In this document: one piece after another, positions 6,397 through 26,180 of the stretch
Position numbering within the stretch: position 1 is the stretch's first letter
Layout: each line of letters starts with the position of its first letter
Source: an uncultured delta proteobacterium
Lineage (GTDB): Bacteria; Desulfobacterota; Binatia; UBA9968
Direction: 5' to 3'
Length of the DNA: 64,000 bases
Assembly (NCBI GenBank): GCA_963755715.1
Contig: CAVWLW010000043.1
Span: 64,001 to 128,000, forward strand
The notes under the pieces: generated by a model
Told to the model about the DNA's origin: nothing
Database searches by the model: none
Seen by the model: the letters and a program-made list of their open reading frames with translations, nothing else
Made by a program: the position numbers and the translations under genes

Positions 6397-6417
6397 TCAC
6401 CTCCGATGGTCGGTCTG

Positions 6418-7953: not shown

Positions 7954-7970
7954 GGATGCCGAAGAGAGTT

Positions 7971-8015: not shown

Positions 8016-8108
8016 CATATCGATGCTTAATGTTCCCTTTCGGAGATGCTTGAAATCCCTCGCCCCTTCGACGCTGCTCAGGGCATGCTGCAGGCAAAGT
8101 GAAAGTTC

Positions 8109-8810: not shown

Positions 8811-9963
8811 TTATCGGCCCCACAACTCTTTGCTCGCAAGCCGCGCGCCTTCGGCCATGGCTTCGAATTTCGCCCAGCAGATTTGTGGGCTGCCGACCCT
8901 CGGGCCGAGGCCGCAATCGGTGCCGGCCATGACGTTTTCGCGCCCGACGATTTTGGCGTAGCGCACGAGGCGGTCGGCGATCGCTTGCGGATGTTCGACG
9001 ATGTCCGTGGCGTGGCCGACGACGCCGGGGACGAGCACTTTGCCTGCGGGCAACTTCACTTCTTCCCAAACGCGCCACTCGTGTTCGTGGCGCGGGATTG
9101 GCCGCTTCGATGGAAATCGTGTTGCGCTTTAACTTTAAGATCAGGTCGATGATATCGCGCAGCGGGATGTCATATTTGTGAGGGCCATGATAGCTGCCCC
9201 AACAGGTGTGAAAGCGCACCCGGTCCGGCGGGATGTCACGTAAGCCGTGATTGAGCGCGTCGACGCGCAGAGCGGCATACTTGCGATATTCCGGGACGCT
9301 CATTTTCGACATGAACTGCCAGCCGTCGGGCAGATCGGGGTCGTCGATTTGCAGCAAAAAGCCGGCGTCGACGATCGCTTTGTATTCCTCGTGCATAGCG
9401 TCGGTAATGGCGACCAAGTAGGCTTCATCATTCGGATAGTAATCGTTCTTCATCCAGTGTTCGATGGTGCCGGGTGCAATGGCGGGAAGAAAAGCTTCTT
9501 CGTAAGTCTGGCCTTGCAGGCTCGCTTTGAAATCCTCGATTTCCGCTTTCAGCGATTCGTGGCCGACATACTTGAGCGGCGCGTTGCAGAAAACTCGCCT
9601 CAGGTTGTCGCCACGATGATAAGTCCGACTATGAAAATAATCGCTGAACTCGGTTAGATCGCGCGCATATATCGTCGAAGGAAGATCTTCGGGCTTTACT
9701 TCTCGTTCGCTAAAGCCGCTCAGCCGTTCGCGCGCGTAGCGGGAGAAATTGGACTTACCCACCTCGCCGTCGTTTATAACATCGAGGCCGCAAGTGATTT
9801 GCTTCTTGACGATGTCGGCGACCGCGCCGCGTACCCGTTTACCAAAGGCGTCCTTGTCGACGGGCTTTCCCGCGATCTGCGCGTTATGCATTTCTTTCAA
9901 ATCTGGTGGTTGCGGCAGCGCGCCGGCATGGGTGGTTAGAATGCGATCGGTGCTGTATTTCAT
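8811..9963 (-). CDS. Cobalamin-independent methionine synthase II family (single-domain MetE-like) Zn enzyme; frameshift near 9090
   Basis: ILTTHAGALP, DVINDGE, LQIDDP, Zn ligands HTCWG and TDCGLG. Confidence 0.85.
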
Positions 9964-10094: not shown

Positions 10095-11089
10095 TCACTT
10101 GAATGAGTCACTTACTTTCTGTGCGAAGCTAAAATCAAATACCCGTTCGGGCGGCGGCAGTTCCTTTGGCTTAACGCGCTGGGCCGCGACGGCAATCATC
10201 TCGCGCTGGACCTTTTCATCGACGGTTCCCGTTTGCAAATAATATTGGACTGCGGCCTCGTAGATACGCTCGGCAAAGCGGTCGCGATCCTTGCCGAGAT
10301 CGAGGTAGGGGCCTTTGATGAACTCGACGGCATATCTTCTTGTCACTACGAATCAGCCGGAGAGAGCGTTGGGTCACGCGAATCATTTTGGTCGACCAGC
10401 TCGGGTCGTTCGTTGATAATTGCTTTGGTCGTCGTCAGCCCGCCTTGCACGGCGCGGTAAAAGTCGGCGCCGGAGGCGAGCTTACGAAATCCCTCATCAA
10501 CGGCAAGAAAGTTCTGCGGAATCTGGAGCATGGTGGCATCAATGGTGCCGGCCTTCAAAGCTACATACATCACGTCGCTCGTGCCCAAAGGAAGAAAAGT
10601 AACTTGCTCCTGCGGAACCTTGTTGGCAAGAAAAATCTCGCGGGCGAGAGTTTCGGCCAGGGCGCCGAACGCCGTAATGCCGAGCTTTTTGCCGCGCATT
10701 TGTTGGAGGTTGGTGATGCTCGGCGCAGCGAGCAGATCGAAGGAGGGTTTGTCGCTCATAGCGAAGACGACCCGCACATCGATGCCGCTTAGCGCGGCGA
10801 CGATGGCCGTCCCGGTCGCCGTGCCGAAATCGATGCCGCCGGCCAGCATCGCCGGAATTGTTTGGGCCGCTTTCATAAAAATAAGTTCGGGCTCTAAACC
10901 CTCTTCTCGGAAATAGCCGCGGTCGCGGGCGATAATAAACGGCATGTCCAAAATACTCCGCGAAACATAGCCGATGCGCACAGGAGCCAATTTAGCGGAT
11001 TTTTCCGCAGACCAGAGGTTATCGTAGTGCGATGCGAGTGCGGCGAGGACGATTAAAAGCGATAGCAAAAAACGGGTCTTACATTTCAT
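10095..11089 (-). CDS. ABC substrate-binding protein (SsuA/THI5-like); frameshift near 10390
   Basis: Signal peptide; PFIIARDRGYFREEGLEPEL; C-terminus ERVFDFSFAQKV in a second frame. Confidence 0.8.
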
Positions 11090-11160
11090 GTTTTCACCAT
11101 CCGATTGGCCGTTGATTGCGGCGAACACGAAACTCGAAACCCGAAACTAGAAATACTTTT

Positions 11161-11829
11161 TTACGCGTAGGCGTCATAGATGCCCTCGAACTTGGCGAGC
11201 TTGAAACGCACCATGTTTTTGGCGGCGGCGCGCACCAGTTCTTTCTCGCGATCCGAATTGGCGTTGCGCGCGATCGTCTCGGCGGCCATCGCCGTGTGTT
11301 CCTGGTCGACTTTGCCGTGCACGATGAAAAAAGTCCGGGCTCGGCTATCGAGGCCGTAATGCTTCTCCAGCGCTGCATCGAATTCGTCCGAATATCGCTG
11401 AACCATGGTTTCGTTGACTAGCGCACCGGCGCGGGTCTCCGCCGCTGTGCCGAGAAACATGCCGCGGATGATCGCTGCCGTGTGGGCGACGCACTCGAAG
11501 ATCATGATTTCCTTGTCGAAATCTTCGTCGGTCAAACCCATGGCTTGGCCGAATCGTTTCATCAACGCGGGATGGGACGATTCTTCGACGAAGAGTTCGA
11601 CGAACTGATTGTACGCAGGCGGGTTGCTGGCATTTTTCACCATACAAAATGCGAGCCCTTTGTTGATCGCGTGATTGGACAGATAGTGCTGCATGGCAAA
11701 GCCGGCGAGGCGCTTCTTGGAAAGCTTGCCCGCGCGCAGCTCGCTGAAATACCGGCTGTTCATTAGCTGGTCGACGCCCGGCAATATAATTTCACGCAAC
11801 ACGGACTCGACGAAAGCTTCGTTTCCCAT
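11161..11829 (-). CDS. Heme-oxygenase-like diiron oxidase (CADD/PqqC/TenA superfamily)
   Basis: All-helical; EESSH, VNET and FFIVHGKVDQEH give the E..H / E / HxxxDxxH diiron ligand set. Confidence 0.8.
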   Translation of the reverse strand: MGNEAFVESVLREIILPGVDQLMNSRYFSELRAGKLSKKRLAGFAMQHYLSNHAINKGLAFCMVKNASNPPAYNQFVELFVEESSHPALMKRFGQAMGLTDEDFDKEIMIFECVAHTAAIIRGMFLGTAAETRAGALVNETMVQRYSDEFDAALEKHYGLDSRARTFFIVHGKVDQEHTAMAAETIARNANSDREKELVRAAAKNMVRFKLAKFEGIYDAYA

Positions 11830-11941
11830 AATAACTCCTTAGATCCTTTAAGGTTGAGGCACGGAAACATTCTCAGAGGAGAAAAGGAGTGTCAAGGGTG
11901 AATTTCGCCAGCCCGCGCCTGCGAAATTTGGCCAACCTTGG

Positions 11942-11971
11942 TTGACAGCCCGGCGTGAGCCTCCTTATATT
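11942..11971 (+). promoter_or_regulatory. Putative sigma70 promoter for the alpha/beta-fold operon
   Basis: TTGACA-18 nt-TATATT; a divergent TTGACA on the minus strand near 11889-11894 points to the diiron enzyme gene. Confidence 0.5.
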
Positions 11972-12067
11972 CGGTTGCGCCGCCAGTGGACCGCGGACGC
12001 GGCGGCAATCGACAGATTCAAAGGCGTAGGAATCTCTTGAAGCCAGACAATTTTGAGAGGATATAAA

Positions 12068-12910
12068 ATGGCCACCGCAACGCTCAACGGCGTGGACACG
12101 TACTATGAAGTACAGGGGCAGGGTGAACCGGTGCTACTCGTGCCGGCTTCTTGGTGGCCGTCGGATACGTGGAACGTCGGCGCGGTGCCTTTTCTGTCGC
12201 AACGATTTAAAACCATCGTCTTCGATTGCCGCGGCACCGGCCGAAGCGGCAAGCCGAAAGACGGCTACACGGTCGAGCAGTTCTCTCAAGATTGCATCGC
12301 TTTGTTGGCGCATCTCGGCGTGTCGCGCTGCCACGCCGTCGGGTTTGCTCTCGGCGGACAGGTCGTGCAAGCGATGGCCATCGAGCGCCCCGATCTGGTG
12401 GCAACATTGACTATCGCAGCCTCCGGCGCGGGGGCGAAAACGCTCGCTGGCGGACCGCGCAGCTTGTCGCCCGATACGGAGCGCGAAATCCGCGACATCG
12501 GCTTTGAGCGTTACATCCGCAACTACATCGAGAACGACACGATGGCGTTTACCCCAAAATTCTATCGCGAACATCCGGAAGTGGTGGCGGCCCTCGCCGA
12601 TGCCGTTTGGTCTGGGCAGAGCACGGTGGAGATGTTTCGCCGCCACGAAGACGCTCGCCTCACTTGGGACACTTTGGCGAAAGCCGCCGACGTGAAAGTG
12701 CCGGCGTTGATTCTCTGCGGCGCGGACGACGACGTGAGCCGGCGCGGCAGCACGCCCGTCGGAACGGCAAAGCGTCTCGCCGAGGCGACGCCTGGCTGCG
12801 AATTATTTTTGATTCCGAACACGAAACATATGACTTTTTGGGACGGCGCCGGCGGGTTGGTTGCACTGCAGGAGTTTCTGGTTCGCCACCCGATTGGAGC
12901 AACGCGGTGA
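12068..12910 (+). CDS. Alpha/beta-hydrolase-fold protein lacking the nucleophile Ser (copy 1)
   Basis: YYEVQGQGEPVLLV, FDCRGTGRS, elbow GFALGG, CGADDDV, KHMTFWDG. Confidence 0.85.
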   Translation: MATATLNGVDTYYEVQGQGEPVLLVPASWWPSDTWNVGAVPFLSQRFKTIVFDCRGTGRSGKPKDGYTVEQFSQDCIALLAHLGVSRCHAVGFALGGQVVQAMAIERPDLVATLTIAASGAGAKTLAGGPRSLSPDTEREIRDIGFERYIRNYIENDTMAFTPKFYREHPEVVAALADAVWSGQSTVEMFRRHEDARLTWDTLAKAADVKVPALILCGADDDVSRRGSTPVGTAKRLAEATPGCELFLIPNTKHMTFWDGAGGLVALQEFLVRHPIGATR

Positions 12911-13920
12911 TTTTCTCGCCCGAACTCTTCAAGAGATTTCTGCGCAATGCATTCCTGGGTTTCATTGGTTGCTGCCTTTTTGTCGCTGTCCTGGCGACCG
13001 TCGTCGAAGCGCAAACCAAAAAAGTTCGCGTGGCGGTTCCCGGCTATACCATAGCGGTGCTGTCGTTTCTCGCCGCAAAGATGAACGGCTATTACGCTGG
13101 GGAAGGTTTGGACGTTGAGCTGATCGCGATGCGCGCACCCACGGCGAATTTGGCGCTCATCGGCGGCAACGTCGAGTTTTCCGCAGTTCCGCTGGCCGGG
13201 CTTACGACCGCGCTGCGCGGCGCACCGTTAAAATTGATTTTCTGCCAGTTCGACAAACCGCAGCATTCGCTTTACGCCAAGCCGGAGTTTCCCAACATCA
13301 AGGCGTTGCGGGGAAAGAAGGTCGCCGTTTCGGGTCTCGGCACCATCGACGATATTTTGCTGCGCGAAGCGCTCGGCGGGGGCGGTGTCGATCCCGCACG
13401 GGATGTCACGGTTCTCGCGATGGGTGCGGCGGACACCCGATTTAGCGCTCTTGTCAGCGGCGCCATCGATGCGTCGATGCTGATCGCGCCGACGTCTTTT
13501 TACGCCAAGGATCAGGGATTCCGAGAATTGGTCGCGTTCCAAGATTTGGGATTTGTTCTGCCCAGCGGCGGTATCGTTGCTCGTGACGAAACCTTAAAGA
13601 ACGATCCGATCACTGCGGAACGATTTGTCCGGGCAACAATTATGGGTTTCTTGTTCATGCGCGACAATCGTCCGGGAACGCTCAAGGTCATGTCGCGAAT
13701 GCTTCGAATTGATGAGTCGACAGCGGCCAAGCTTTATGACTCGTCTCGGCCGACTCTGACAAACGACGGCACGGTCACGGGAGAGTCGGAAAAAAAGATG
13801 ACCGGTATGGTCCTCAAAATTGCCGGCGTCAAAGAAGCTCCGCCGACGGATAAGCTCTATGACTTCTCGCTTGTGAAGAAAGCCCATGCGGCGTTACAAG
13901 CAAAAGGCTGGCGCCCATAA
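12907..13920 (+). CDS. ABC substrate-binding protein (SsuA/THI5-like)
   Basis: GTG start overlaps the upstream stop; signal peptide; GYYAGEGLDVELI, ALRGKKVAVS, YDFSLV. Confidence 0.85.
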   Translation: MIFSPELFKRFLRNAFLGFIGCCLFVAVLATVVEAQTKKVRVAVPGYTIAVLSFLAAKMNGYYAGEGLDVELIAMRAPTANLALIGGNVEFSAVPLAGLTTALRGAPLKLIFCQFDKPQHSLYAKPEFPNIKALRGKKVAVSGLGTIDDILLREALGGGGVDPARDVTVLAMGAADTRFSALVSGAIDASMLIAPTSFYAKDQGFRELVAFQDLGFVLPSGGIVARDETLKNDPITAERFVRATIMGFLFMRDNRPGTLKVMSRMLRIDESTAAKLYDSSRPTLTNDGTVTGESEKKMTGMVLKIAGVKEAPPTDKLYDFSLVKKAHAALQAKGWRP

Positions 13921-13966
13921 CCAAGGCGCATTGTGAAATCGAGCAAAGAGACTAGCGAGGTTGAAC

Positions 13967-14800
13967 ATGCCTAGCGCGAAAATCGGCGACATCGACATCT
14001 ACTATGAAGAGCAAGGACAGGGCGAGCCGGTGCTGCTCGCCCCGCCGTCGTGGTGGCCGAGCGATACCTGGAAGGTCAGCGTCGTGCCGTTTTTGTCGAA
14101 GCATTACCGCACAATCATTTTTGATTGCCGCGGTACGGGCTACAGCAGCAAGCCCGATCATGGATACAACATCGAGCAGTTTGCCAAGGATTGTGCCGGG
14201 CTGCTGGGATACTTAAAAGTATCGCGCTGTCACGCGGCAGGTTTTGCGCTGGGCGGGCAAATCGCGCAGGCGCTGGCGATTCAGCGACCCGATCTCGTCG
14301 CTACGTTGACCATTGCAGCAGCGGGCGCGGGAACGAAAGCGACCGACGGCGGGCCGCGGGTGATCAGAAATACCGACGAGGAAGAGATTCGTGAGCACGG
14401 CTTCGAGCGCTTCATTCGCGGTCACGTCGAGAATACTCACATGGCGTTCAATGCCACCTTCTACGATGCCCATCCGGAAGTGGTCAAAGCGCTTTCGGAT
14501 GCGTTGTGGCGGCGTCAGACGAGTCCGGAGCAACATCGATATCACTACGAGGCCCGACGCACCTGGGATACATTAGGCAACGCGGCGAAAGTAAAAGTGC
14601 CGACGCTGATACTTTGCGGCGCGCAGGACGACGTCAATCGCGGCGGCAGTACGCCTGTCGGCACGGCGCGCAAACTCGGCGAATTGGTTCCCGGCAGCGA
14701 GCTTGCGCTTGTGCCTGACGTGAAACATATGACTTTTTGGGACGGCGACGGCGCGCTCATCGCGCTGCAGGATTTTTTGCAAAGGCATCGCATTCAATGA
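13967..14800 (+). CDS. Alpha/beta-hydrolase-fold protein lacking the nucleophile Ser (copy 2)
   Basis: PPSWWPSDTW, GFALGG, CGAQDDV, KHMTFWDG. Confidence 0.85.
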   Translation: MPSAKIGDIDIYYEEQGQGEPVLLAPPSWWPSDTWKVSVVPFLSKHYRTIIFDCRGTGYSSKPDHGYNIEQFAKDCAGLLGYLKVSRCHAAGFALGGQIAQALAIQRPDLVATLTIAAAGAGTKATDGGPRVIRNTDEEEIREHGFERFIRGHVENTHMAFNATFYDAHPEVVKALSDALWRRQTSPEQHRYHYEARRTWDTLGNAAKVKVPTLILCGAQDDVNRGGSTPVGTARKLGELVPGSELALVPDVKHMTFWDGDGALIALQDFLQRHRIQ

Positions 14801-14839
14801 CGTGAACCTTGAACGTTTGAACTCTTGAACCAGCGGAGG

Positions 14840-15912
14840 ATGAATCGAGTCATGAAACTGCGAAATTTCACAGCTGGCATCGTTATGATGCTCGTGAGCG
14901 GATTCGCCGGTGGCTGTGGGCTACGGCCAAGACAAGAGCCAAGGCCGGTAGTGACGGGATCACGCAACTTTATAACGCCGCCAAGAAGGAAGGCACGGTA
15001 GTCATCTGGGGACCGACGGACGCGATTATTTATCAACGCATGCAGGAGGTGCTGGATAAACAGTATCCGGGCATCAAGATCGAGCACTTCGAAAGCATCC
15101 CCGAACCGCTCGTGCAGCGCATCATCGCCGAAAGCCAAGCGGGGAAGCCGGCCGCGGTGGACGTCATTCAGTCCGGTTCGCTGCGCGCGTTGCGGCCGTT
15201 GATCGATCGCGACATGCTGGCGCCTTATCCGGGATGGGAGAAAGACTTTGGCCTCGACGCCGTATACGCCAACCAACGCTTTGTCGGCGCTTATAATCTT
15301 ACCTTGCCGATTTCTTACAACACGAAAATGGTGAGCGCCAAGGAAGCGCCGAAAAGCTGGGAAGATCTCGCCGATCCGAAGTGGAAGGGAAAGAAGATAA
15401 TTATCGAGGCCCGACTGGTGCCATTTGCCATGCTCGGAACCGAGTGGGGCAAACCGAAGGCAAGCGAATTGGTCAAGAAAATTCTCTCCCAGCAACCGCT
15501 CATCGTTCAGGGCGGCACCACCGTCGCCAATGCGCTTGCCGGCGGTCAAGTTTCGATTGCCGTCGGCACTTACGCTTACACCATCGAGCGCTTGAAGAAA
15601 CAGGGCGCGGCAGTGGACTGGATCGCCGTCTCACCTCTGCCCGTGCTGACTTCCGCAGAGGGAGTTCTCAAGACTGCAGCTCATCCAAATGCCGGGCGTT
15701 TCTTCGCCGGGTGGATGGGAACGCCCGAAGGGCAAAAGATCAGATACGCGACCCAGGGACAGGCCATGGAGGTGGGCAGAAACGCGATCGGCAACGTTGC
15801 CGAGAGAATCAAGAGCCAGCAGCCCGCGATCATATTGGAAACCGATAAGACCTTTGCGTCGATCTTGGAAATCCAACGCGAGTTGGGAAAATTGCTCGGC
15901 GCGCTGCGGTAA
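14840..15912 (+). CDS. Extracellular solute-binding protein (AfuA/FbpA/TbpA-like); N-terminal frameshift
   Basis: LYNAAKKEGTVVIWG, APKSWEDLADPKWKGK, AAHPNAGRFF; the signal peptide is in another frame. Confidence 0.8.
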
Positions 15913-15924
15913 GAATAATCGCGA

Positions 15925-16008
15925 TGTCATCCTGAGGCGCAGCCTGCAGGCCTCTACGCCGAGTTGGCCTCACGTTAATCGAGATCCGTCGCTTTGCTCA
16001 GGATGACA
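15925..16008. repeat. REP-like palindromic element
   Basis: TGTCATCCTGAG...GAGATCCGTCGCTTTGCTCAGGATGACA. Confidence 0.7.
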
Positions 16009-16034
16009 CGATGTAAAAACGTGGAGCTGCTAAA

Positions 16035-17805
16035 TTGAACGTCGCGATGAAGCGCGGATTCAAGCGTTGGAATTCTGGCCAGGGCGCGCATCTACCGTTC
16101 GGACCCTTGACCTTCGGCTTGACGGTAATCGCCGTTTCTTATCTCGTTCTCGTTCCCTTGCTCATGCTGCTCTACGCCAGCATCAAAAGCACGGAGGACA
16201 AGCTGCCGTTCGAGTCCACGGCTACCACTCTCGGCAATTACACGGCCGTTTTCACCAGTCCGGCAACGCTGCCGATTTTTCTCAACACGCTGCTTTTTAC
16301 CGCGGGCTCGCTTGCGATCGGACTGCCGTTGGCGATTCTCCTGGCCTGGTTGGTCGAGCGGACCGCCATTCCGGCGCGCGCGTGGATCGGCAATTTGATT
16401 CTCGTGCCGATGACGGTGCCGTCGCTGCTGTCGGCGATCGCATGGGTCCAGCTGCTCGATCCGCGCAACGGTCTGGTCAACGTCGTCTTGCGCGGCCTGT
16501 TCGGATTGCAATCCGACACTGGGCCCTTCGACATCTACACGCTCTCGGGAATGTGCTTTGTGCAGGGCCTCAGGCTGGTGCCGTCGGCGTATTTGATGAT
16601 CGCGGCATCTTTTCGCGCCATGGACCCATCGTTGGAAGAACAAAGCGCGATGGCGGGGCAGAACGTCGCGCAGACCACACTGCGCGTGACTCTGCCGATC
16701 ATGCGGCCGGCGCTGCTCGCTGCGCTGATCTATTTCATCATCGTCGTGATCGAGTCTTTCGACATTCCGGGACTGCTCGGATTTACAGCCCGCATCCGCG
16801 TACTGAGCACGGCGATTTATTGGGCGACCCATTCGGAAGTCGGGCTGCCCGACTATGGGTTGGCGTCGGCCTTGGGAGCGATCATTTTAGTCGTCGCTCT
16901 GATGTTGATGTGGGGCTACCAGCGCTTGACCGCGCACCAAGAGCGCTTTGCCACCATCACCGGCAAGGGTTACCGGCCGCGCCAGGTGAATCTCGGCCCA
17001 TGGCGGATGACGGCAACGGCGTTCTGCGCGGTTTACATTATGATCGCCGTGCTATTGCCTTTTCTCATGCTGCTGTGGAGCAGCGTGCAACCGTTCTATG
17101 CAACACCGTCGGCGGAATCGCTGGCGCGGGTCACTTTTGAAGGTTACACCAAGATTTGGCGCGACGGCAGCGTCGTGCGCGCCCTGTGGAATACCCTCGC
17201 GCTTGCGCTGGTCACTTCAATGGCGACGATGCTGTTGGCCGTGCTCGTCAGCTGGTTCGTCGTGCGGCGCGGCAGACAAGCGGACGGCATGGCCAAGTAT
17301 CTCGCCACGGTTTCGTTTCTGCCGCAATGCGTGCCGAGCATCGTGATCGGTCTCGCGTTCATTTTCGTCTACGTGCGCTTCCCCATTCCGATTTACGGCA
17401 CCCTCTGGATCATCGCGCTGGCGATGACGACGCGCTATCTCGCGTATAGCTCGCGGGCGACGACGGCGGCGCTCATGCAGGTGCACGGCGAGCTCGAAGA
17501 AGCGTCGCAGATGGCCGGCGCGCCGTGGCTGCGAACGCTGCGGCGGATCACGATGCCGTTGCTGGCGCCGGCAATGATCAATGTGTTTCTTTGGGTCGCG
17601 GTCCATGCGATGCAAGAGTTGTCGATGGCCTTGATGCTCTACAATCCGAGCACCGTCGTCGTCTCGACGATGATCTGGAGCATGTGGCAGAACGGCCGAA
17701 CCGCCGACGCGGCGGTTTTGGGCGTTGTGTTAATCTTTCTGTCGGCGGTGCTGCTGGCCTGCTGGCCAGATCGTTTCGATAATGCGGCGCGGCGCGCATT
17801 CCTAG
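16035..17805 (+). CDS. Iron(III)/thiamine-type ABC permease (FbpB/AfuB-like, two BPD_transp_1 domains)
   Basis: MDPSLEEQSAMAG and VHGELEEASQMAGA EAA loops; TITGKGYRP. Removing one base near 17760 gives a stop at 17803-17805. Confidence 0.85.
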
Positions 17806-17816
17806 CGGGATACTTC

Positions 17817-18914
17817 GTGATCAGCGTAAGAGATTTGGAGAAAACGTTCGCCGGTGCTAAGGGCGAAGTGCGCGCCCTGCGAGGCGTGTCGTTCGAGGTC
17901 GGCAAGGGAGAATTATTCACTTTGCTCGGTCCCAGCGGTTGCGGCAAGACGACGACGTTGCGCTGTATCGCCGGATTGGAGCAACCCTTGTTCGGTGAAA
18001 TCATTATCAACGACCGCAAAGTGTTCAGCGCCAACGATGGTACTTTCATACCGCCCGAGCAGCGTCACATCGGCATGGTTTTTCAATCCTACGCGATTTG
18101 GCCGCACATGACGGTGTTTCAAAACGTCGCCTATCCACTGGCCAACTCCGCTAAACGGAGTGAAATCAACGACCGGGTGGGCGGAATACTCGATCGCCTA
18201 AGCCTCGGCGCTTTGGCAGACCGGCTGGCACCGAATTTAAGCGGGGGACAGCAGCAGCGCGTCGCGTTGGCGCGGGCGCTCGTTGCGCAACCGCAGATTC
18301 TTTTGCTCGATGAACCGTTGAGTAACCTGGACGCGAAGTTGCGCGAACAGATGCGTTTCGAGCTCAAATCGCTGCAGGAGGCATTTGGTATTACCGCAGT
18401 TTATGTGACCCACGACCAAGAAGAGGCGCTGGCGCTGTCGGATCGCATCGGCTTGATGCACGAGGGCACACTGCTCGAAGTCGGCGCGCCGGCGGACCTT
18501 TATTTGCGGCCGGCGCACAAGATCACCGCGGATTTTCTCGGCACAGCCAATTTTGTCCCGGCACAGGCCGACGTCCGTGGCGGTATGACATCGGAGGAGC
18601 TGGTCGTGTGTTCGCCGATCGGTAATTTTGTCGCGCGGCGCAGTGCCGAATGGCAGGGAGGCGACGCCGTGCTGCTGTTTTTCCGTCCGGAAAACGTTGA
18701 CTTCAATAATGAATCGGATTTGTCGAGCAACGGTAAAAACATGGCGACGGGAAAGATAGAGCGGGTCACTTTTTTAGGTAATTCCGCTGACGTGGTGATT
18801 CGCTGCGGCACAATCGCATTGCGTGCACGCGTCCATCCGACGCGTGCGCCGGAGGCGGGGAAACTGGTTCGTTTTTCCGTAGCGCCGGAGTCGTGCATTA
18901 TTTTTCCGGCGTAG
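17817..18914 (+). CDS. ABC ATP-binding protein (FbpC/PotA-like, TOBE domain)
   Basis: [32 protein letters not shown]. Confidence 0.9.
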   Translation: MISVRDLEKTFAGAKGEVRALRGVSFEVGKGELFTLLGPSGCGKTTTLRCIAGLEQPLFGEIIINDRKVFSANDGTFIPPEQRHIGMVFQSYAIWPHMTVFQNVAYPLANSAKRSEINDRVGGILDRLSLGALADRLAPNLSGGQQQRVALARALVAQPQILLLDEPLSNLDAKLREQMRFELKSLQEAFGITAVYVTHDQEEALALSDRIGLMHEGTLLEVGAPADLYLRPAHKITADFLGTANFVPAQADVRGGMTSEELVVCSPIGNFVARRSAEWQGGDAVLLFFRPENVDFNNESDLSSNGKNMATGKIERVTFLGNSADVVIRCGTIALRARVHPTRAPEAGKLVRFSVAPESCIIFPA

Positions 18915-18964
18915 GAAATTCGCTTGCGCTGAGAATGCAATTGAAAAATCCGGTTGAGATCATG

Positions 18965-19132
18965 TGTAGGGGCGTGTGGCACACGCCCTCTTTTTGGCAC
19001 GGTCTTCCCCCGTCGAAGACTGTGCTGCAATTACGAAAGGGACCGAGATGTCATCCTGAACGACAGTGAAGAGTCTCGACCGATCGATAAGTTACAAAAG
19101 GCGAGATCCTTCGGCTTCGCCTCAGGATGACA
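18965..19132. repeat. REP cluster: GTAG-type hairpin plus GTCAT-type element
   Basis: TGTAGGGGCGTGTGGCACACGCCCT; ATGTCATCCTGA...TCAGGATGACAT, a 12-bp perfect inverted repeat. Confidence 0.7.
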
Positions 19133-19252
19133 TGGGACACAAGTCTCTCGAGCGGAGAGAGGTTACGGTCGGTGCTCGCGAGAAGCTTTCCGTAAAACCA
19201 GGCCAAGTTTGTGGGCTGAGATGGAGACAGTCGCGTCATTAGGAGCAGTGGC

Positions 19253-20204
19253 ATGACTTCAAGAAATAGTTCGAATGACAAGGATCAGCGGAACAGCATC
19301 GAGTGGCGGCTCTATACCAACATGCTGACGACGCGGCTCTTCGAAGAGGCGCTGGTTCGCTGGGAGCATGAGGGGAAACATTCGGCGCAGACTTTTCCGA
19401 GCAAGGGGCAGGAAGCGATTGCGGTGGGAACTTGCTTGGCGTTGGAAAAAGGCGACGATGTCATTCCGTCTTTTCGAACCCGCGGTGCGATGATCGCGAT
19501 GGGAGTGAGCGTTGTCGAGCAGCTGCGCGAGTTTTTTCACACGCCGTTCGCTGTGGGAGATGCGCGCGACGCGCCGCATCACGCGTCGTGGCCGGAGCGC
19601 GGCGTGATGCCGGGCTCGACGATGATCGGCGGGCACCTGGCGATGGCCGCGGGCATCGCGTTAGCCGATCAATGCAATCGGGCCGGCAATGTCAGCGTCG
19701 CTTTTTTCGGCGATGGCACGCTCGGTTCCGGAGATCTGTATGAGACCATGCATATCGCCGGAGCGTGGAATTTACCGTTGATACTGGTCTGCGAGAACAA
19801 TGGTTGGGAGATGGCGACGACCTGGTCGAAGGTGCGCAAGACGCGGTCGCTGATCCCTTACGCCGAGCCGTTCGGTTTCGCCGACGCGCAACGTCGACGG
19901 CAATGATGCTTTGGACGTGTATCATTCGGCGCGCTGGGCGCGGTCGACTGCATTAAGCGGCCAGCCGGTGTTTCTCGATTGCATCACCTTTCGTCTCGGA
20001 CTCTATAGCTCTCACTTCGGCGAGGTGCGACAGGGCATTGAACCCGATCTCGCTGAAGCCGAACGACGCGATCCGTTGAAGCGCATGGCAGAATGGTTGA
20101 TCGAACACTGTGCTGTGTCAGCTCAAGACCTTGAGAAGGTGCGCCAAGAAGAAGAACAACGGATCGAAAAAACATTCGAGCAAGTCGCGAGGGAAATGAA
20201 ATAG
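19253..20204 (+). CDS. ThDP-dependent dehydrogenase E1 alpha-like subunit; frameshift near 19880
   Basis: GQEAIAVG, ThDP motif GDG...ENN, VDGNDA, DPLKR. Confidence 0.85.
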
Positions 20205-20225
20205 ACAAAAGATTGAATTGTCTTT

Positions 20226-20253
20226 GTAGGGGCAACCCTCCGTGGTTGCCCTT
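20226..20253. repeat. GTAG-type REP hairpin
   Basis: GTAGGGGCAACC-CTCCGT-GGTTGCCCT. Confidence 0.65.
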
Positions 20254-20300
20254 TCAGACGTCAAATATGCGAAAGGCGCAACGGAAGGGAAGAGCTACAG

Positions 20301-21251
20301 ATGTCGACATTGAATTACCGCGATGCGGTCGCCAAGGCACTGCAAGATTCCATGCGCGAGGAGCCGCGCTTGATTATCATCGGACAGAACATTGCCAGCC
20401 ACGCGCTCAAGCAATTGGCCGATACCTACGGCACGGAACGAGTGCGCGATTCGTCGATCAGCGAGAGCGCGATGGTCGGTATGGCCGTCGGCGCGGCGAT
20501 GAAAGGCATGAAAGTCGTGGTCATGATCGCCTACGCCGACATCGCGTCGGTGTGCCATATGGCGATCGTGCAGAGCGCGGCAAAACTTCATTATCTGACC
20601 AACGGTCGTCTAAAGTGTCCCGTGATCATCCGGTTGCCGATCGCGCGTTTTCGCGGCCATGGGCCGGAAGGGAACGAAGTCGGCGCGTCGTGGTTTTACA
20701 ATGTGCCGGATTTGAACATCGCCATGCCGGGCTCGACGAGTGAAGCTTACTGGATTTTTCGCGAGGCATTGCAACGGCCAACGCCGACGCTGTTTTTCGA
20801 AGATCGCTCGATTCACTTGCGATCGGGAGAAGTGAACGACACTAATCCCGGGAGCAAAGCGCGGGTCACTCGCTCCGGCGGCAAGTTAACCATCATCGCG
20901 GCGGGCCGGACCGCTGCGCTAGCTGAAGACGCTGCGGATGAATTGGCCAATCAAGGAATTCGCGACGCCGTCGAAATCGTGAGCCTGGGTTTCATCAAGC
21001 CGTTGGATAAGGAAACCGTGCTCAAGTCCTCAAGTAAGACGGGCAGAGTTTTGATCGTGCAGGACGAGCCCGCTGTGTCCGGCTACGCGCCCTACGTCCG
21101 GTGCGTGCTCGATGAATTACCCGCGACGAAACTTGCGCTGGCGCCGCGCATTCTCGCCGGCGCAGACCAGTATCTGCCGTACTGGGATGAGCGGCCGTTT
21201 TTGCCTTCTGTGGAAGGTGTGATGGCCGCGGCAAAGGATTTGATGCGATGA
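20301..21251 (+). CDS. ThDP-dependent dehydrogenase E1 beta-like subunit
   Basis: YGTERVRDSSISESAMVGMAVGAA, PTLFFE, KPLDKETVLKSSSKTGRVLIV. Confidence 0.85.
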   Translation: MSTLNYRDAVAKALQDSMREEPRLIIIGQNIASHALKQLADTYGTERVRDSSISESAMVGMAVGAAMKGMKVVVMIAYADIASVCHMAIVQSAAKLHYLTNGRLKCPVIIRLPIARFRGHGPEGNEVGASWFYNVPDLNIAMPGSTSEAYWIFREALQRPTPTLFFEDRSIHLRSGEVNDTNPGSKARVTRSGGKLTIIAAGRTAALAEDAADELANQGIRDAVEIVSLGFIKPLDKETVLKSSSKTGRVLIVQDEPAVSGYAPYVRCVLDELPATKLALAPRILAGADQYLPYWDERPFLPSVEGVMAAAKDLMR

Positions 21252-22270
21252 AAACATACAGCGAAATTCTACTGCTGACTGGCGCGCTAGCGGTGCTAGG
21301 TTTTGGACACGCGATCGCTCAAGTGGCGAATCCTGAACTGCTCGCCCAGGCGAAGAAGGAAGGGCGGGTGACTTGGTACACCACTGTTTCCATCCCTGAG
21401 AGCAAGCAATTCATGGACATGTTTGAGAAACAGTATCCGTTCATAAAAGTGGATCTGCTTCGTTCCGGCTCCGGGCCGCTGGTCAATCGCATTGTCAGCG
21501 AGTACGCGGCAAAGACCTACGCCGCGGACGTCCTGCACGGCATGTCCAGCCGGGGCGGATTCACCGTGCTCAAGCAAAGAAATATCATCGGCCGCTACGA
21601 CTCGCCCGAGCGCAAATATTATTCCGCCGACCTCAAGGACAAGGATGGATTCTGGTCGTCTACCTTTCAGAACACGTTTGTATTGGCTTATAACAAGCGC
21701 AACGTAAAACCTGACGATGTTCCGAAAACCTACGAGGATTTGCTGAAGCCCACGTGGAAGGGCAGGCAGATCATCAACGACACGGACAACTTCGAATGGT
21801 TCGACGGGCTGCTTAAGTTTTGGGGCCGCGATAAAGGCATGGCCTATTTCAAGCGGCTGGCGCAGCAAGACCAGATCTTTCAGCGCGGCGCGCGGGGGCG
21901 CATCCAACTCGTGGCGGCAGGCGAAGCGCCGCTGACGATCGGCTACGGTCCGCATGCGCAAAGTTTCGTCAACCAGGGCGCGCCCATCGAGTGGGTGCCG
22001 TTGGAGCCGGTCGTAGTGATCGTGAACAGCATCAGTATCGCGCAGCGCGCGCCGCATCCGGCGGCGGCAAAACTGTTTATCGACTTTCTGCTCTCCAAAA
22101 CGGCACAGACGAAATTACGCGAGATGAGCAGGATTCCATCGCGCAGCGATGTCGAATCGGACCCACCTCGTCTCATCAAGGGCTTCAAAAAAGTCGTTCA
22201 GGACATCGAAAACGAGAGCATGTCCGAGTCGATCAAGCTCTTTCAGCAAACGTTTAGTTTGGCTCCTTGA
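21248..22270 (+). CDS. Extracellular solute-binding protein (AfuA/FbpA-like)
   Basis: Signal peptide; AKKEGRVTWYT, PKTYEDLLKPTWKG, APHPAAAKLFIDFLLS. Confidence 0.88.
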   Translation: MKTYSEILLLTGALAVLGFGHAIAQVANPELLAQAKKEGRVTWYTTVSIPESKQFMDMFEKQYPFIKVDLLRSGSGPLVNRIVSEYAAKTYAADVLHGMSSRGGFTVLKQRNIIGRYDSPERKYYSADLKDKDGFWSSTFQNTFVLAYNKRNVKPDDVPKTYEDLLKPTWKGRQIINDTDNFEWFDGLLKFWGRDKGMAYFKRLAQQDQIFQRGARGRIQLVAAGEAPLTIGYGPHAQSFVNQGAPIEWVPLEPVVVIVNSISIAQRAPHPAAAKLFIDFLLSKTAQTKLREMSRIPSRSDVESDPPRLIKGFKKVVQDIENESMSESIKLFQQTFSLAP

Positions 22271-22397
22271 TAGCAAATAAACTGGTTCAACACGTTCAAA
22301 TCGTTCGCAGGCGGAACGGTGCCTCGCAGTTGCGATCGAGCGGTATGGGGCATTGGCCAACTCAAGATAACGTTTTGAAGATTTATTGGGGAAGACA

Positions 22398-23237
22398 ATG
22401 GCGATTGCGAATGTAAATGGCGTCGAGATTTACTATGAAACACAAGGGAGCGGAGAGCCGGTTCTGCTGGTTCCGCCGAGCTGGTGGCCGTGCGCAACGT
22501 GGAACGTCGTTGTAGTTCCGATCCTTTCGCGGCGCTATCGCACGATCATCTATGACGGCCGCGGGACGGGACGAAGCGGTAAGCCCAAGGATGATTACAC
22601 CGTACGTCAGTTCGCCGCCGATGGCATCGAGCTTCTGAAGCAGCTCGGTATTACCCGATGTCACGTCGTTGGCTTCGCGATTGGCGGTCAGATCGTGCAG
22701 GCGATGGCGATCGATCGGCCCGATCTCATCGCGAGTCTGACGATCGCCGCCACCGGTCCGGGCTCGCGACGGCTCGATGGGACACCGCGGGAAGTCGGAC
22801 CGGAAGCTTTACAGGACATCGAGAAGATCGGCTTCGAGAAATACATCCGCACGCATATCGACAACGACCACATGGCGTACAATCCCGATTACTACCGCGA
22901 CCATCGCGAAGTGGCCGCAAGTTTGGCGCAGGCGCTGTGGTCGGGGCAAAGCACGGTCGAGCAGTATCATATCCATGAACAAGCGCGGCCTAGCTGGGAT
23001 ACTTTAGCCGAAGCGCCGAAGGTAAAAGTGCCGACGCTGGTTCTTTGCGGCGCGGACGATGGCGTCGAACGGCGCGGCAGCACGCCCGCGGCGACCGCGA
23101 AGATGCTGGCGCCGTTGATTCCGGGAGCGGAGTTAGCGCTGATTCCAAAGACCAGACATATGACGTTCTGGGATGGCGACGGCGCGCTGATCGCGTTACA
23201 AGGTTTCTTGGCGCGCCATCCGATCCGCACACATTGA
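22398..23237 (+). CDS. Alpha/beta-hydrolase-fold protein lacking the nucleophile Ser (copy 3)
   Basis: PPSWWPCATW, GFAIGG, CGADDGV, RHMTFWDG. Confidence 0.85.
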   Translation: MAIANVNGVEIYYETQGSGEPVLLVPPSWWPCATWNVVVVPILSRRYRTIIYDGRGTGRSGKPKDDYTVRQFAADGIELLKQLGITRCHVVGFAIGGQIVQAMAIDRPDLIASLTIAATGPGSRRLDGTPREVGPEALQDIEKIGFEKYIRTHIDNDHMAYNPDYYRDHREVAASLAQALWSGQSTVEQYHIHEQARPSWDTLAEAPKVKVPTLVLCGADDGVERRGSTPAATAKMLAPLIPGAELALIPKTRHMTFWDGDGALIALQGFLARHPIRTH

Positions 23238-23659: not shown

Positions 23660-24415
23660 CTATGGATTGAGCTGCACAGTCTTCTCAAGGCGCTGGCCGC
23701 GGCGAACGATTGATAAGGCAACCTGCTTGCCTCCATGCTCACGGAGAAGTTCGTTAAACGCTTGAGCATTGGCGATTGCAACGCCGTCTACAGCGATTAC
23801 CACGTCGCCTATCTGCAAATCCGCATTAAAGGCCGGGCTCTCATCAACGACTAATCGGACCACTGCGCCCTGGTTGGTTTGGAGTTCTTGGCGTTCTGCG
23901 TCGTTGAGGTCACGGCTCAACGCACCTAGTCGGAACCGTTGCTTCACGAAGTAGACCGCGCCATAGTCTGACAGGGCAATTGTGGCCGGCACATAGGATG
24001 TGATGTCATCGAGAGCCCTGCTGGAGTCTTTGGGGGCCCTTGTTAGTATCGTAATCGGAATGTCATAAGTCACCGTCCCGGCGTACCTAGGATTCAGAAT
24101 TAGTACCAGGTCCGCACCTACGTCCTGTGCCTGACGAACAGCTGAATCCTCCGACTCAGGGTGACCGGTCTTGAACATTGAGTTGCCAATCATGATGTAG
24201 CCGCGCTTTGCGTAGGCATCAAGAATCATCTTGCTGTCGCCGCGCTCTGCGCGCTCCACGATGGGTGTAGCCGGTGGTGGCGCCACACGTATAGCCGCTA
24301 CAGCCTCCGGAGTCGCACCCTGCGCCTGCTTGTAGAACTCCTTGTATCCACTACATGCAGTGAGGAATAACGTAAAGAAAAGAGGAAGGAACGGACTCGA
24401 AAGTGCCTTGATCAC
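23660..24415 (-). CDS. PDZ-domain lipoprotein
   Basis: Lipobox LTAC; C-terminal PDZ (SPAFNADLQIGDVVIAVDG...VRRGQ). Confidence 0.75.
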   Translation of the reverse strand: MIKALSSPFLPLFFTLFLTACSGYKEFYKQAQGATPEAVAAIRVAPPPATPIVERAERGDSKMILDAYAKRGYIMIGNSMFKTGHPESEDSAVRQAQDVGADLVLILNPRYAGTVTYDIPITILTRAPKDSSRALDDITSYVPATIALSDYGAVYFVKQRFRLGALSRDLNDAERQELQTNQGAVVRLVVDESPAFNADLQIGDVVIAVDGVAIANAQAFNELLREHGGKQVALSIVRRGQRLEKTVQLNP

Positions 24416-24416
24416 A

Positions 24417-24551
24417 GGAGCCTCCTTGCTCTGCGGCTGGTGAGAGCCCCGAGATGTAACTAATCCGCGGGATGTTGGTGGGTCGCTGCGCTTCGGCTCG
24501 ATGAATTGAGACGAGAAGCAGAACCGGGAGCAGCCAAAACTTTCTATTCAT
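24417..24551 (-). pseudogene. Truncated N-terminus of an ABC_sub_bind-type substrate-binding protein
   Basis: MNRKFWLLPVLLLVSIHRAEAQRPTNIPRISYISG resembles the start of 57576..58566 (AQQPTKGPPRIGAI), then breaks off. Confidence 0.5.
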
Positions 24552-25108
24552 AGCCAGCCCTTCACCGCAATGGATATGCCACAAAGGCGGGCGATATTAA
24601 AATCAGTATTTTTTATCGCGAGAACAGTCGTTGAGCGTGGCGATTCGACAACAGGAGCTGTATCAGATTTGATTCGTGGGGTGAACGACAGCTCTCACCG
24701 ATCACAACGCCTTTCGCCCAAACAGCCACCGACCGGTAACAATCGTTAGATAGGCGAACGCCAAACCCAAGGCGATGCTCACCATAAAGGCGAACGGATT
24801 GACCCATCGCGCTACAACAACGAAGGCCAAAACATTGGCCACGAAAATGTAGGCGTAGAACTTGACGGCGTACGGCATGAAGCCGGGGGTTTATCGTTGA
24901 TGGGGTTGGATTGCAACCCGACGCCGGAGAGGGCGCCGGATTTATTGAGCCATCGCCTCAAGCATTAGGAACAATAGATAGCCGACCAATATTGTGGCGA
25001 TGATAACGAAAGGGTGAGATTCAACCCATCGGTGGCGGTCGGCGGCCGGTTGCTTTCTTTCCTCAACCTGCGCTAGAAGAACCTTCTGCGGTCACGGAGG
25101 TTGGCGAT

Positions 25109-25366
25109 ATGGCCGTTGATAAACGTAAGGCGCTTCAACCCGTCCTGGATAGCATCGAAAAGGGATGGCAGATCATAAAGCCGTCTCCCCTGAATCCGGA
25201 TGACCTCGACACCGAATGCATTTTTCAACACAGAGCAGCAGGACACGAACAAGTAAGAATTGTTATTGATAATAGCCTTTTCCGACTCAGCAACATATCC
25301 GAACTTCAAGACCTCGTTCGATCAGTAATCAAACCTGGCCCTAACATTTACTTAGCGAGACCGTAG
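25109..25366 (+). CDS. Hypothetical protein
   Basis: 85-aa ORF with RBS GGAGG and protein-like composition; no recognised motif. Confidence 0.45.
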   Translation: MAVDKRKALQPVLDSIEKGWQIIKPSPLNPDDLDTECIFQHRAAGHEQVRIVIDNSLFRLSNISELQDLVRSVIKPGPNIYLARP

Positions 25367-25616
25367 GCCCGGCTCTTTCAATTTCAACCACTGGCGACAA
25401 ATCCGGTTTTCCATCGTCGATCCATTTTTTGGCGAATGTAAGGCCTTCTATTTCCGCTTTTTGTCGTACACGAAATCTGCGCTTATCAGTTAACTTAATA
25501 AGCCTTCCTTTGCCGTCTTCACTCCAAATTACCTTAATGCGTGGTTCCCACTGACGCGTAGCAGGCACCGGCGCAGTTGAAACAATGATGTTGTGACCTT
25601 TATGGCTTTCGTTCAT
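25341..25616 (-). CDS. Small hypothetical protein (CV_2116-like family, copy A)
   Basis: HKGHNI...WEPRIKVIW...F...KAEIEGLTFAKKWID; RBS GGAAG. Confidence 0.6.
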   Translation of the reverse strand: MNESHKGHNIIVSTAPVPATRQWEPRIKVIWSEDGKGRLIKLTDKRRFRVRQKAEIEGLTFAKKWIDDGKPDLSPVVEIERAGPTVSLSKC

Positions 25617-25749
25617 GAGGCTTCCTTCTTAGTCGAATTATTTCTCTGAAGAGAAATTGTCTTTGATTAGGTATTTGGGAGCAAGCTTTATCGCTGGATT
25701 GCAACCTGATACCGGCGAGGGCGCCGGATCTTTGGAGCGGTGAGCGGAA

Positions 25750-26180
25750 AGTAAAAGTGAAATTTAGTCACGGTTGAGCAGTTCGGCACAGCGCGATACG
25801 TCCCACCATCCCCAGGTGTCACGCGTGATCTCGATGCGTTTGACCGTCCCATCAGCAGCCGGCAAAAGCGAACCTCGCAAATAATCGGAATCGTAGTCGC
25901 TGGCGTGTAGCTTGAATTGCCCTGAATCTGCCCGTACTTATTTACCGTTCCAGAGAAATTCGACGAGCCAGGGAGCGTAAGCGAATTCATGCCCGAGTGC
26001 CAAGTGTAGAACTTGTCGCCGTTCGATAATGCGTACTCACTGACTGGTGGACCATAGCTGATAAAAAATTGATCGATGTGCCGGCCTGTATAACGTTCAC
26101 CCGAGCGATCCAGCCACGCCCTGCGTTGTGGTGCAGGCTGCTAAAAATAAAGCGCCGGCAAGCAATGCTCGATAGGGCAT
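25750..26180 (-). pseudogene. Small lipoprotein, frameshifted (3' end approximate)
   Basis: MPYRALLAGALFLAACTTT, then in a shifted frame YTGRHIDQFFISYGPP...YTW...CEV. Confidence 0.5.

Follow-up and report, generated by a model that had tools for sequence, protein, structure and literature searches.

A candidate uptake and catabolism locus with serine-less alpha/beta-fold proteins and an atypical E1 pair in a soil Binatia bacterium

The 64,000-nucleotide stretch of DNA analysed here, referred to as the window, covers positions 64001-128000 of one contig (G000:C43:64001-128000) in an assembly of 7.4 Mb and 76 contigs that is 93.6% complete. The genome belongs to the Binatia, an uncultured group of bacteria that is common in soil. 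The window carries a locus that combines genes for substrate-binding proteins (SBPs) and an ATP-binding cassette (ABC) importer with genes for a heme-oxygenase-like diiron oxidase (HDO), a MetE-like protein, three alpha/beta-fold proteins with an Ala at the nucleophile elbow (ABH1-3) and the alpha and beta subunits of a thiamine diphosphate (ThDP)-binding E1. The SBPs include members of the class that binds Fe3+, 2-aminoethylphosphonate (AEP), thiamine or polyamines. The features of the locus are as follows:

8814..9963, minus strand: MetE-like Zn alkyltransferase (PF01717 and Zn-ligand alignment; frame break of the window near 9095)
~10095..11128, minus strand: SBP0, NMT1/SsuA-type, with signal peptide (PF09084, 3.6e-17; two frame breaks in the C-terminal part)
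11161..11829, minus strand: HDO, 222 aa (PF14518, 7.6e-17)
11942..11971, plus strand: sigma-70-like promoter match TTGACA-18-TATATT (11/12 positions, consensus match only)
12068..12910, plus strand: ABH1, Ala-elbow alpha/beta-fold protein (PF00561, ~1e-18 for the ABHs)
12907..13920, plus strand: SBP1, NMT1/SsuA type, with signal peptide (PF09084, 2.7e-20; GTG start candidate)
13967..14800, plus strand: ABH2, Ala-elbow alpha/beta-fold protein (motif, alignment and AlphaFold2 pLDDT of 96.1)
14825..15912, plus strand: SBP2, Fe3+/AEP/thiamine/polyamine class (family matches; two extra letters at 14912 and 14939)
16035..17805, plus strand: FbpB-like two-domain ABC permease (BPD_transp_1 in two stretches; extra letter at 17763)
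17817..18914, plus strand: PotA/FbpC/PhnT2-like ABC ATPase (ABC_tran and TOBE_2)
18969..18989, plus strand: terminator-like hairpin and T run 3' of the ATPase gene (9 pairs, 6 of them G-C; pattern match only)
19253..20201, plus strand: E1 alpha, ThDP-binding (extra letter at 19881; Tyr at the canonical alpha His)
20301..21251, plus strand: E1 beta (Asn at the beta His128 position, activating Glu kept)
21248..22270, plus strand: SBP3, Fe3+/AEP class, with signal peptide (family matches; start overlaps the E1 beta stop)
22398..23237, plus strand: ABH3, Ala-elbow alpha/beta-fold protein (motif and alignment)

The genes can be divided into two modules. Module A comprises the minus-strand genes, transcribed in the order HDO, SBP0 and MetE-like gene, together with the divergent plus-strand genes ABH1, SBP1, ABH2, SBP2, permease and ATPase, while module B consists of E1 alpha, E1 beta, SBP3 and ABH3. 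Start and stop codons overlap between ABH1 and SBP1 and between E1 beta and SBP3, and each plus-strand SBP gene adjoins a gene for a cytoplasmic Ala-elbow ABH. The divergent spacer of 223 bp contains one sigma-70-like site; as the scan overall found 5 such sites versus 6.8 expected, this site is a consensus match only. Neither the open reading frames (ORFs) nor the family matches of the locus include a regulator gene, and the window yielded no Rfam match at gathering score, no tRNA and no riboswitch clue. A sequence-only reading of the same DNA had described most of this inventory, and its account holds for the HDO gene divergent from the plus-strand run, the three close ABH paralogues without a nucleophile Ser, the three SBPs of the plus-strand run (here assigned to the NMT1 type for SBP1 and to the Fe/AEP/thiamine type for SBP2 and SBP3), the replacement of both canonical catalytic His of the E1 pair and the lack of an E2, E3 or lipoyl carrier, none of which was found among the ORFs between 8.7 and 24.4 kb of the window. 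It also named an FbpBC-like transporter and an E1 alpha/beta pair. The permease and ATPase domains and both E1 subunits are present, but the single 959-aa transporter ORF and the split of E1 alpha at ~19883 are products of assembly insertions or deletions (indels). Its inventory lacked SBP0 and the MetE-like gene of the HDO operon.

The most distinctive proteins of the locus are the ABHs. ABH1-3 are 57-64% identical to each other and adopt the alpha/beta-hydrolase fold according to their PF00561 matches, the AlphaFold2 model and structure comparison with VIA (Z of 34.9 to PDB entry 6eb3). At the nucleophile elbow they present GFA[LI]GG instead of G-x-S-x-G, the oxyanion loop reads S-W-W-P, and both the acid Asp (C-G-A-x-D) and the His (H-M-T-F-W-D-G) are kept. 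Across 49 sequences, H254 never varies and D221 is present in 90% or more, and an alignment of eight sequences shows no variation at either residue. The Ala elbow recurs in the orthologs of a second Binatia family (g9) and in the 50% representative, and paralogues that are 30-35% identical to the ABHs keep a GHSMGG elbow. When 1.84 billion representatives at 50% identity were searched with a profile, one full-length core cluster was recovered along with about six divergent full-length ones that carry the WWP loop, of which four have an Ala elbow, one has Thr and one is a shorter Ala form; the next relatives beyond these are Ser-type. In a quick IQ-TREE tree of 49 rows (selected profile matches plus window and locus sequences), 10 Ala rows and one Thr row make up a WWP/Ala clade (SH-aLRT 97) that is sister to 18 Ser-type rows, with a single Ala row (P0182) placed outside it. 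Matches in the ESM Atlas are only Binatota-centred clusters. As judged from these sequences, the Ala-elbow ABHs form a single supported clade, found almost exclusively in Binatia. This clade is under strong constraint, with dN/dS values against orthologs of 0.06-0.14 for ABH1, 0.07-0.11 for ABH2 and 0.08-0.12 for ABH3, next to 0.08-0.14 for E1 beta. The overall range for the four genes is 0.06-0.15, or 0.08-0.14 in the less saturated comparisons with L081; the row for ABH3 and L052 represents a paralogue pair and was not counted.

Additional features of the ABHs were recorded. A three-residue insertion after the acid Asp creates the motif 'RRGSTP' (residues ~222-230; window 14630-14656 in ABH2), which is conserved in the Ala clade, is lacking in paralogues of the Ser type and might form a loop that binds anions. 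Elsewhere in the genome, at G000:C32:74291-76288, a Ser-type paralogue that shares 32% identity with ABH2, and whose sequence in this assembly contains one in-frame TGA, is arranged head-to-head with an Fe-type SBP gene (37% identity to SBP3); the pairing of ABH and SBP may thus predate the Ser-to-Ala change. The best NCBIfam match of the ABHs, TIGR02427 (pcaD), scores 92.7-110.7 bits and stays under its cut-off of 255.85. A role as AcoC-like E2 was considered and rejected. The AcoC profile NF011457 gave no match over its cut-off of 307 in the window's own genome or in 14 control genomes; on the ABHs it scored 46-49 bits for the proteins and 41-44 bits for genomic DNA and matched only at profile positions ~100-360. 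The ABHs have no lipoyl domain and are outscored by about 30 other places in the genome. The source annotations 'pimeloyl-ACP methyl ester carboxylesterase' and '3-oxoadipate enol-lactonase', as well as 'PQQ biosynthesis protein C', were likewise set aside as generic or unlikely. The chances that the ABHs are non-hydrolytic catalysts appear evenly balanced, and a dependence on O2 is unlikely.

The second unusual component is the E1 pair, which contains the domains E1_dh, Transket_pyr and Transketolase_C and retains the ThDP motif GDG...NN and the activating Glu at the beta59 position. Alignment with the Geobacillus stearothermophilus pyruvate dehydrogenase E1 (E1p; 3duf_B) places an Asn at beta128, within 'RGHGPEGNE'. 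Alignment with 1w85_A and paralogues from the same genome places a Tyr at alpha271, within 'GLYSSHFGE', where a His stands three residues past the Tyr and a shifted alignment is possible. Each motif occurs in 13 copies in the window and 55 loci, and the altered positions are invariant. According to the portions of the study PMC2663715 that bear on this residue, every known E1 has a His at beta128, and this His touches pyruvate at its 2-oxo and carboxylate groups and is proposed to act as an acid/base in the reductive acetylation of lipoate, and H128N dramatically reduces the DCPIP (2,6-dichlorophenolindophenol) activity and leaves less than 5% of the complex activity. The genome encodes six other E1 alpha/beta sets, located on contigs C32 (two in tandem, 58468-62478), C54, C6 and C74. 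All six keep the beta His (as H-S-Q, H-S-E, H-S-S or H-S-G), and the alpha His is kept in three and absent in one (C32b), the alignment not reaching it in the remaining two. Only the sets of C6 and C74 lie within a few kb of a lipoyl-domain match; the window set and the others do not. Since both His that serve lipoyl acylation are replaced and no lipoyl-domain match is nearby, a lipoyl-independent ThDP enzyme is suggested. It is somewhat likely that this E1 works without a lipoyl-E2, and it probably does not take an ordinary 2-oxo acid.

By its fold and ligand set, as seen in sequence alignments and the model, HDO is a predicted member of the heme-oxygenase-like diiron oxidase superfamily, whose members bind two metal ions and activate O2. 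The six ligand positions E83, H86, E140, H171, D175 and H178 are invariant in 20/20 aligned orthologs and paralogues, and the AlphaFold2 model is all-helical with a pLDDT of 94.5. The best Foldseek match is CADD (1rcw/8va9; TM-score 0.77-0.83, 17-18% identity), followed by sden_3740 (function not known), PqqC, TenA and UndA, with TM-scores of 0.73-0.83 over the whole list. The two Glu and the HxxxDxxH pattern of HDO align with CADD residues which we take to be its metal ligands. However, HDO scores 58.1 bits against the CADD model TIGR04305 and does not reach the cut-off of 200, and its secondary match to PF03070 (TENA/THI-4, 29 bits) is lower than that to PF14518. The MetE-like protein is best seen in its intact form of 415 aa in a relative (L052:5683-6930), with a PF01717 score of 69 bits. 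Its H-x-C, E and C residues (HTC, E, DCG) align to the Zn-ligand positions of Arabidopsis thaliana MetE, under what we assume to be the correct numbering of the latter. Methionine-synthase equivalog cut-offs are not reached, the best being NF003317 with 106.6 bits against a cut-off of 406. A MetE-like gene lies downstream of HDO in 9/12 HDO-bearing loci, two of the three misses being at contig ends, and in relatives SBP0 is likewise found between the two genes. Both families are expanded in the genome: HDO has six copies (including C55:32006-34015, C10:11791-12456, C54:48202-48879 and C57:127062-127727) and the MetE-like family at least seven (including copies on C56, C18, C61 and C59 and at C43:25738-26937), and the paralogues are often found beside NMT1- or Fe-type SBP genes.

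The transport genes were compared with curated families. The closest NCBIfam family of the permease is PhnU2 (196 bits versus a cut-off of 593), the ATPase scores 313 bits against the PhnT2 equivalog (cut-off 458) and SBP3 scores 84 bits against PhnS2 (cut-off 393), so that the PhnS2/T2/U2 equivalog cut-offs are reached by none of the SBPs, the ATPase or the permease. SBP3 also matches an sfuA/thiamine SBP family (1.4e-8), and its top PDB match is an iron-binding protein. A single permease and ATPase set is shared by as many as four SBPs, which fall into two structural classes. At the level of sequence similarity, and with every score under its curated cut-off, the SBP and ATPase families point to possible substrates among charged amines, cofactor-like molecules and phosph(on)ates.

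Several of these genes are broken in the window as assembled: E1 alpha is shifted at ~19883, the signal peptide and the mature protein of SBP2 lie in different frames, permease and ATPase form the 959-aa ORF, and SBP0 and the MetE-like gene are frame-broken. Compared with short-read soil contigs, the window has many single-base indels, with sites at 9095, ~10100-10420, 14912, 14939, 16011-16110, 17763, 19116, 19153 and 19881. Four of these sites were compared in three soil runs that come from different studies (X1, X4 and X8), not all of which show each site: the letters at 14912, 14939 and 17763 are absent from contigs of X1 and X4, and the letter at 19881 is absent from contigs of X1, X4 and X8. 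Once these four letters are removed by script, SBP2 reads as 361 aa, the permease (589 aa) and the ATPase become separate ORFs, and E1 alpha spans 316 aa. Separate intact genes, including a permease gene of 592-610 aa, are also present in the relatives L052 (a k141 short-read contig) and L059. The permease-ATPase 'fusion' is therefore an artefact and the genes are intact in nature, and both a genuine fusion and a pseudogenised locus were rejected on these grounds. Frameshift, pseudogene or fusion calls on this contig need a short-read check, as apparent cases may stem from assembly errors of a single base. Contigs from 13 studies contain part of the stretch, and 14 runs contain at least half of its sampled words. 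Contigs of the RNA run X19 (90-99% likeness) cover parts of SBP2, permease, ATPase and E1 alpha, a weak hint of expression in relatives that was not used as evidence. Outside the locus, the upstream flank (185-8097) is rich in transport genes (SBP_bac_3, NMT1 SBP, TctC and TctA) and includes a Creatinase_N ORF at 1596-2624 that may be a frame-broken M24 enzyme. The region 24400-28700 has a low GC content (0.49-0.51 versus ~0.57-0.60 around it); its ORFs do not exceed 151 aa, and it contains neither a tRNA nor an Rfam match.

The conservation of the locus was examined in 61 genomes, including G000 (the genome of the window) and two unpublished genomes that were negative for ABH and E1 orthologs. 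The counts are given descriptively and not as statistical tests. Ala-elbow ABHs (at least 55% identity) were found in 43/61 genomes, namely 24/31 of the genus, 2/6 of the other genomes of the family, 17/19 of g9 and 0/5 of f2. HDO orthologs (at least 74% identity) are present in 24/61 genomes, and E1 beta orthologs in 14/61, 13 of these among the 31 genomes of the genus and one in a sister genus. The sequence-only reading had itself proposed the co-occurrence of the enzyme types in other genomes as its test, and they do co-occur: an ABH is present in 22 of the 24 genomes with an HDO ortholog, with HDO and ABH within 4 kb in at least 18 of these 22, and in 14/14 genomes with an E1 ortholog, 13 of which also have an HDO ortholog (the one without it is a 65%-complete bin). 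The E1 ortholog is always arranged as E1-SBP-ABH. This unit stands alone in L096 and L078 and adjoins the importer in most long-enough loci (L050, L052, L054, L055, L057, L059, L064, L065, L067, L081, L083 and L091). Among 50 ABH loci, many of them on short contigs, HDO is found in 12, E1 in 15, both in 5 and the permease in 14. In g9, none of 16 loci has HDO or E1 within 10 kb of the ABH; here the ABH is directly upstream of a PotA-like ATPase in 9/16 loci, and a permease or SBP match is found in the flank in 12/16. Based on these counts across loci and genomes, the most stable association is that of ABH, SBP and ABC importer, and HDO and E1 are added modules.

Uptake proteins next to enzymes with replaced catalytic residues suggest that the locus probably degrades a small molecule by unusual chemistry. 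The favoured reading, held at slightly below an even chance, is that this soil Binatia bacterium has a modular locus for uptake and catabolism, in which the ABHs are non-hydrolytic and the ThDP enzyme does not depend on a lipoyl carrier. Taken separately, it is likely that the locus is a functional one for uptake and catabolism, and doubtful that all parts serve one pathway. In such a locus, several periplasmic SBPs would feed related small polar solutes to one importer of the Fbp/Pot type. The ABHs, presumably unable to form an acyl-enzyme, would be general-base catalysts of a non-hydrolytic kind. The diiron HDO and the Zn-dependent MetE-like enzyme may carry out oxidative and alkyl-transfer steps, and the E1 with its Asn and Tyr could cleave or form a C-C bond beside a carbonyl group, its product not being passed to a lipoyl-E2. 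The latter enzyme would be an accessory that is present in some genomes. In agreement with the sequence-only reading, which recognised no described pathway, no part reaches the curated NCBIfam cut-off for a characterised enzyme, and full-text searching of a limited body of literature found no description of the cluster.

Several observations weigh against this reading. No substrate, ligand or activity is on record for any part. The nearest solved structures of the ABHs among the matches listed are Ser enzymes: Est1 (6eb3/8v16; profile E-value 1e-39, VIA Z of 34.9 and rmsd of 2.1 Å over 262 residues) and PcaD (2xua; VIA Z of 32.4), both 25-31% identical to the ABHs, with perhydrolases and the N-acyl-homoserine lactone (AHL) lactonase Est816 also among them. 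The cofactor-free dioxygenases HOD and AqdC are absent from the 54 PDB sequences at E <= 1e-10 and from the Foldseek and VIA matches listed (all 1000 VIA chains scored Z >= 8, of which the best rows are listed). For the N-heteroaromatic or 1,2-diketone substrate that had been suggested from the sequence alone, the analysis gave no supporting sign; the closest listed matches of the ABHs are enol-lactonases and Ser esterases. A terminator-like hairpin stands between modules A and B, and outside this locus the HDO paralogues of the genome are not found paired with MetE-like ones. Nine genomes have HDO and ABH without an E1 ortholog; they are 60-99% complete, five of them 93-99%. In L028 (g9), the neighbours of the ABH are an NMT1 SBP, an M24 protein (weakly DoeA-, PepQ- or DddP-like), an F420-type LLM, an OCD/EutC-like protein, an SBP and a permease. 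In addition, the sequence relatives compared are all metagenome bins, and close kin are not independent observations. The earlier proposal of a single import and oxidation pathway survives only in part: the enzyme types co-occur, but E1 is found in only 13/31 genomes of the genus and can stand apart from the other parts.

The alternative that survives best, itself rather unlikely, is a loose juxtaposition in which module A, module B and perhaps the HDO/MetE-like operon serve different substrates, in a genome that packs modules of SBP plus enzyme together. The differing spread of the orthologs (E1 in 14 of the 61 genomes versus 24 for HDO and 43 for ABH), the isolated E1-SBP-ABH units of L096 and L078 and the hairpin at 18969-18989 are consistent with this view, as are the six HDO and at least seven MetE-like paralogues and many SBPs of the genome, often adjacent, and the window flank full of TctA, TctC, NMT1 and SBP_bac_3 transport genes. 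However, E1 stands beside the importer in most long-enough loci, both modules carry the same ABH subfamily and SBP3 has no permease of its own. A second, quite improbable alternative is that the Ala-elbow ABHs are not catalysts and have kept their fold as ligand-binding, sensor or transporter-accessory proteins. The nucleophile is gone throughout the clade, the association with ABC transporters is constant across two families (in g9, ATPase in 9/16 and permease or SBP in 12/16 loci) and no regulator gene was seen in the locus. A pure binding protein, however, need not keep the His and the acid Asp that all three ABHs retain, the three paralogues are strongly constrained, and a natural alpha/beta-hydrolase-fold enzyme with an Ala elbow exists, as stated in the accessible text of PMC10548524.

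An ordinary locus is highly improbable. It would combine an acetoin- or 2-oxoacid-type E1 using E2/E3 from elsewhere with common esterases and an iron or polyamine importer. The best family matches (pyruvate dehydrogenase E1 alpha/beta, PcaD, PotA, FbpC and PhnT2), the lipoyl-domain matches on C6 and C74 and the iron-binding top PDB match of SBP3 are in line with it. Against this, every score stays under the curated cut-off, both lipoyl-acylation His are replaced and the replacements conserved, the E1 sets of C6 and C74 are near a lipoyl-domain match and the window E1 is not, and the ABHs have no Ser nucleophile. Thiamine salvage, with a TenA-like protein, ThiY-like NMT1 SBPs and a ThiBPQ-like importer supplying a ThDP enzyme, is barely conceivable, since the PF03070 match of HDO (29 bits), the TenA entries of the fold search (TM-score 0.73-0.80) and the sfuA/thiamine match of SBP3 (1.4e-8) are set against a window without a thiamine pyrophosphate (TPP) riboswitch or any Rfam match, an HDO with a full diiron ligand set and a higher PF14518 score, and three ABHs and a MetE-like enzyme left without a role.

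Beyond the favoured reading of a modular locus with non-hydrolytic ABHs, a bolder version can be formulated. The Ala-elbow ABHs might have arisen from enol-lactonase-like esterases as a second lineage, independent of the known one, of oxygenases or lyases that need no cofactor and, together with HDO, the Zn alkyltransferase and a natural 'H128N' E1 that works without lipoate, might constitute an undescribed O2-dependent route, a proposal with only a small chance of being correct. It is similarly improbable that abundant soil Binatia consume a common small polar metabolite by this route, for instance an onium compound or a heterocyclic amine. In any case, the locus offers two natural experiments: a subfamily of alpha/beta-hydrolases that lost its nucleophile and is nevertheless strongly constrained, and an E1 with Asn in place of a His described in the relevant section of PMC2663715 as conserved in all known E1s. 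Solving the chemistry of the ABHs and of the E1 could add a new reaction type to each fold and could name a substrate that a major soil lineage imports through several dedicated binding proteins.

The components can finally be compared with known systems. Est1 (6eb3/8v16) and PcaD (2xua) are the nearest solved relatives of the ABHs among the matches listed. In the printed alignment, the Est1 elbow reads G-x-S-x-G versus G-F-A-x-G in the ABHs, and the elbow of PcaD presumably has a Ser as well. In contrast to both enzymes, the ABHs carry the WWP oxyanion loop and the RRGSTP insertion. HOD, QDO and AqdC are cofactor-independent 2,4-dioxygenases that use O2 to cleave the ring of 3-hydroxy-4(1H)-quinolones and release CO, and their elbow has either a Ser that is dispensable or a natural Ala. 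The gene context of the aqd cluster, as far as we are aware of it, is unlike the context of SBPs and ABC importer seen here. HOD and AqdC share the alpha/beta-hydrolase fold and the His-Asp dyad with the ABHs, and AqdC also has an Ala elbow; in the sections of PMC10548524 that describe these dioxygenases, the Ala of AqdC is natural, the dyad serves as general base, and HOD has Trp36 in its oxyanion-hole loop (Gly35-Trp36) and uses Asp126, which lies elsewhere than the canonical acid position. By its place in the sequence, the Trp of HOD may correspond to the S-W-W-P stretch of the ABHs. The acid Asp of the ABHs is at the canonical position, after the strand preceding the His. No specific kinship of AqdC or HOD to the ABHs was detected among the matches listed; AqdC may serve, by analogy, as a functional precedent.

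The acetoin dehydrogenase genes AcoA/AcoB/AcoC resemble module B in the succession of an E1 alpha/beta pair and an alpha/beta-fold protein within an operon. AcoC of some bacteria, as we understand it, combines a lipoyl domain with the alpha/beta fold. By contrast, the ABHs have neither a lipoyl domain nor the Ser, the ABH gene is separated from E1 beta by an SBP gene, and the E1 has neither His. The E1p of G. stearothermophilus (1w85/3duf) shares the E1 domains, the GDG...NN motif and the Glu at the beta59 position with the window E1, which differs from it by the Asn at beta128, the Tyr at alpha271 and the lack of an adjacent E2. HDO is similar in fold to CADD (CT610, a 4-aminobenzoate synthase; TM-score 0.77-0.83) and UndA, and its E, E and HxxxDxxH pattern aligns with CADD; it differs by an identity of only 14-18%, by a first His that follows the Glu by three residues (ExxH) and lies at a gap relative to CADD, and by a context of uptake and catabolism rather than biosynthesis. 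For the importer, PhnS2T2U2 (putative for 2-aminoethylphosphonate), FbpABC, ThiBPQ and PotABCD provide models with a two-domain permease, a TOBE ATPase and the same SBP class. The window system is set apart from PhnS2T2U2 by its scores relative to the cut-offs (ATPase 313 versus 458, permease 196 versus 593 and SBP3 84 versus 393 bits) and by the sharing of one importer among up to four SBPs.

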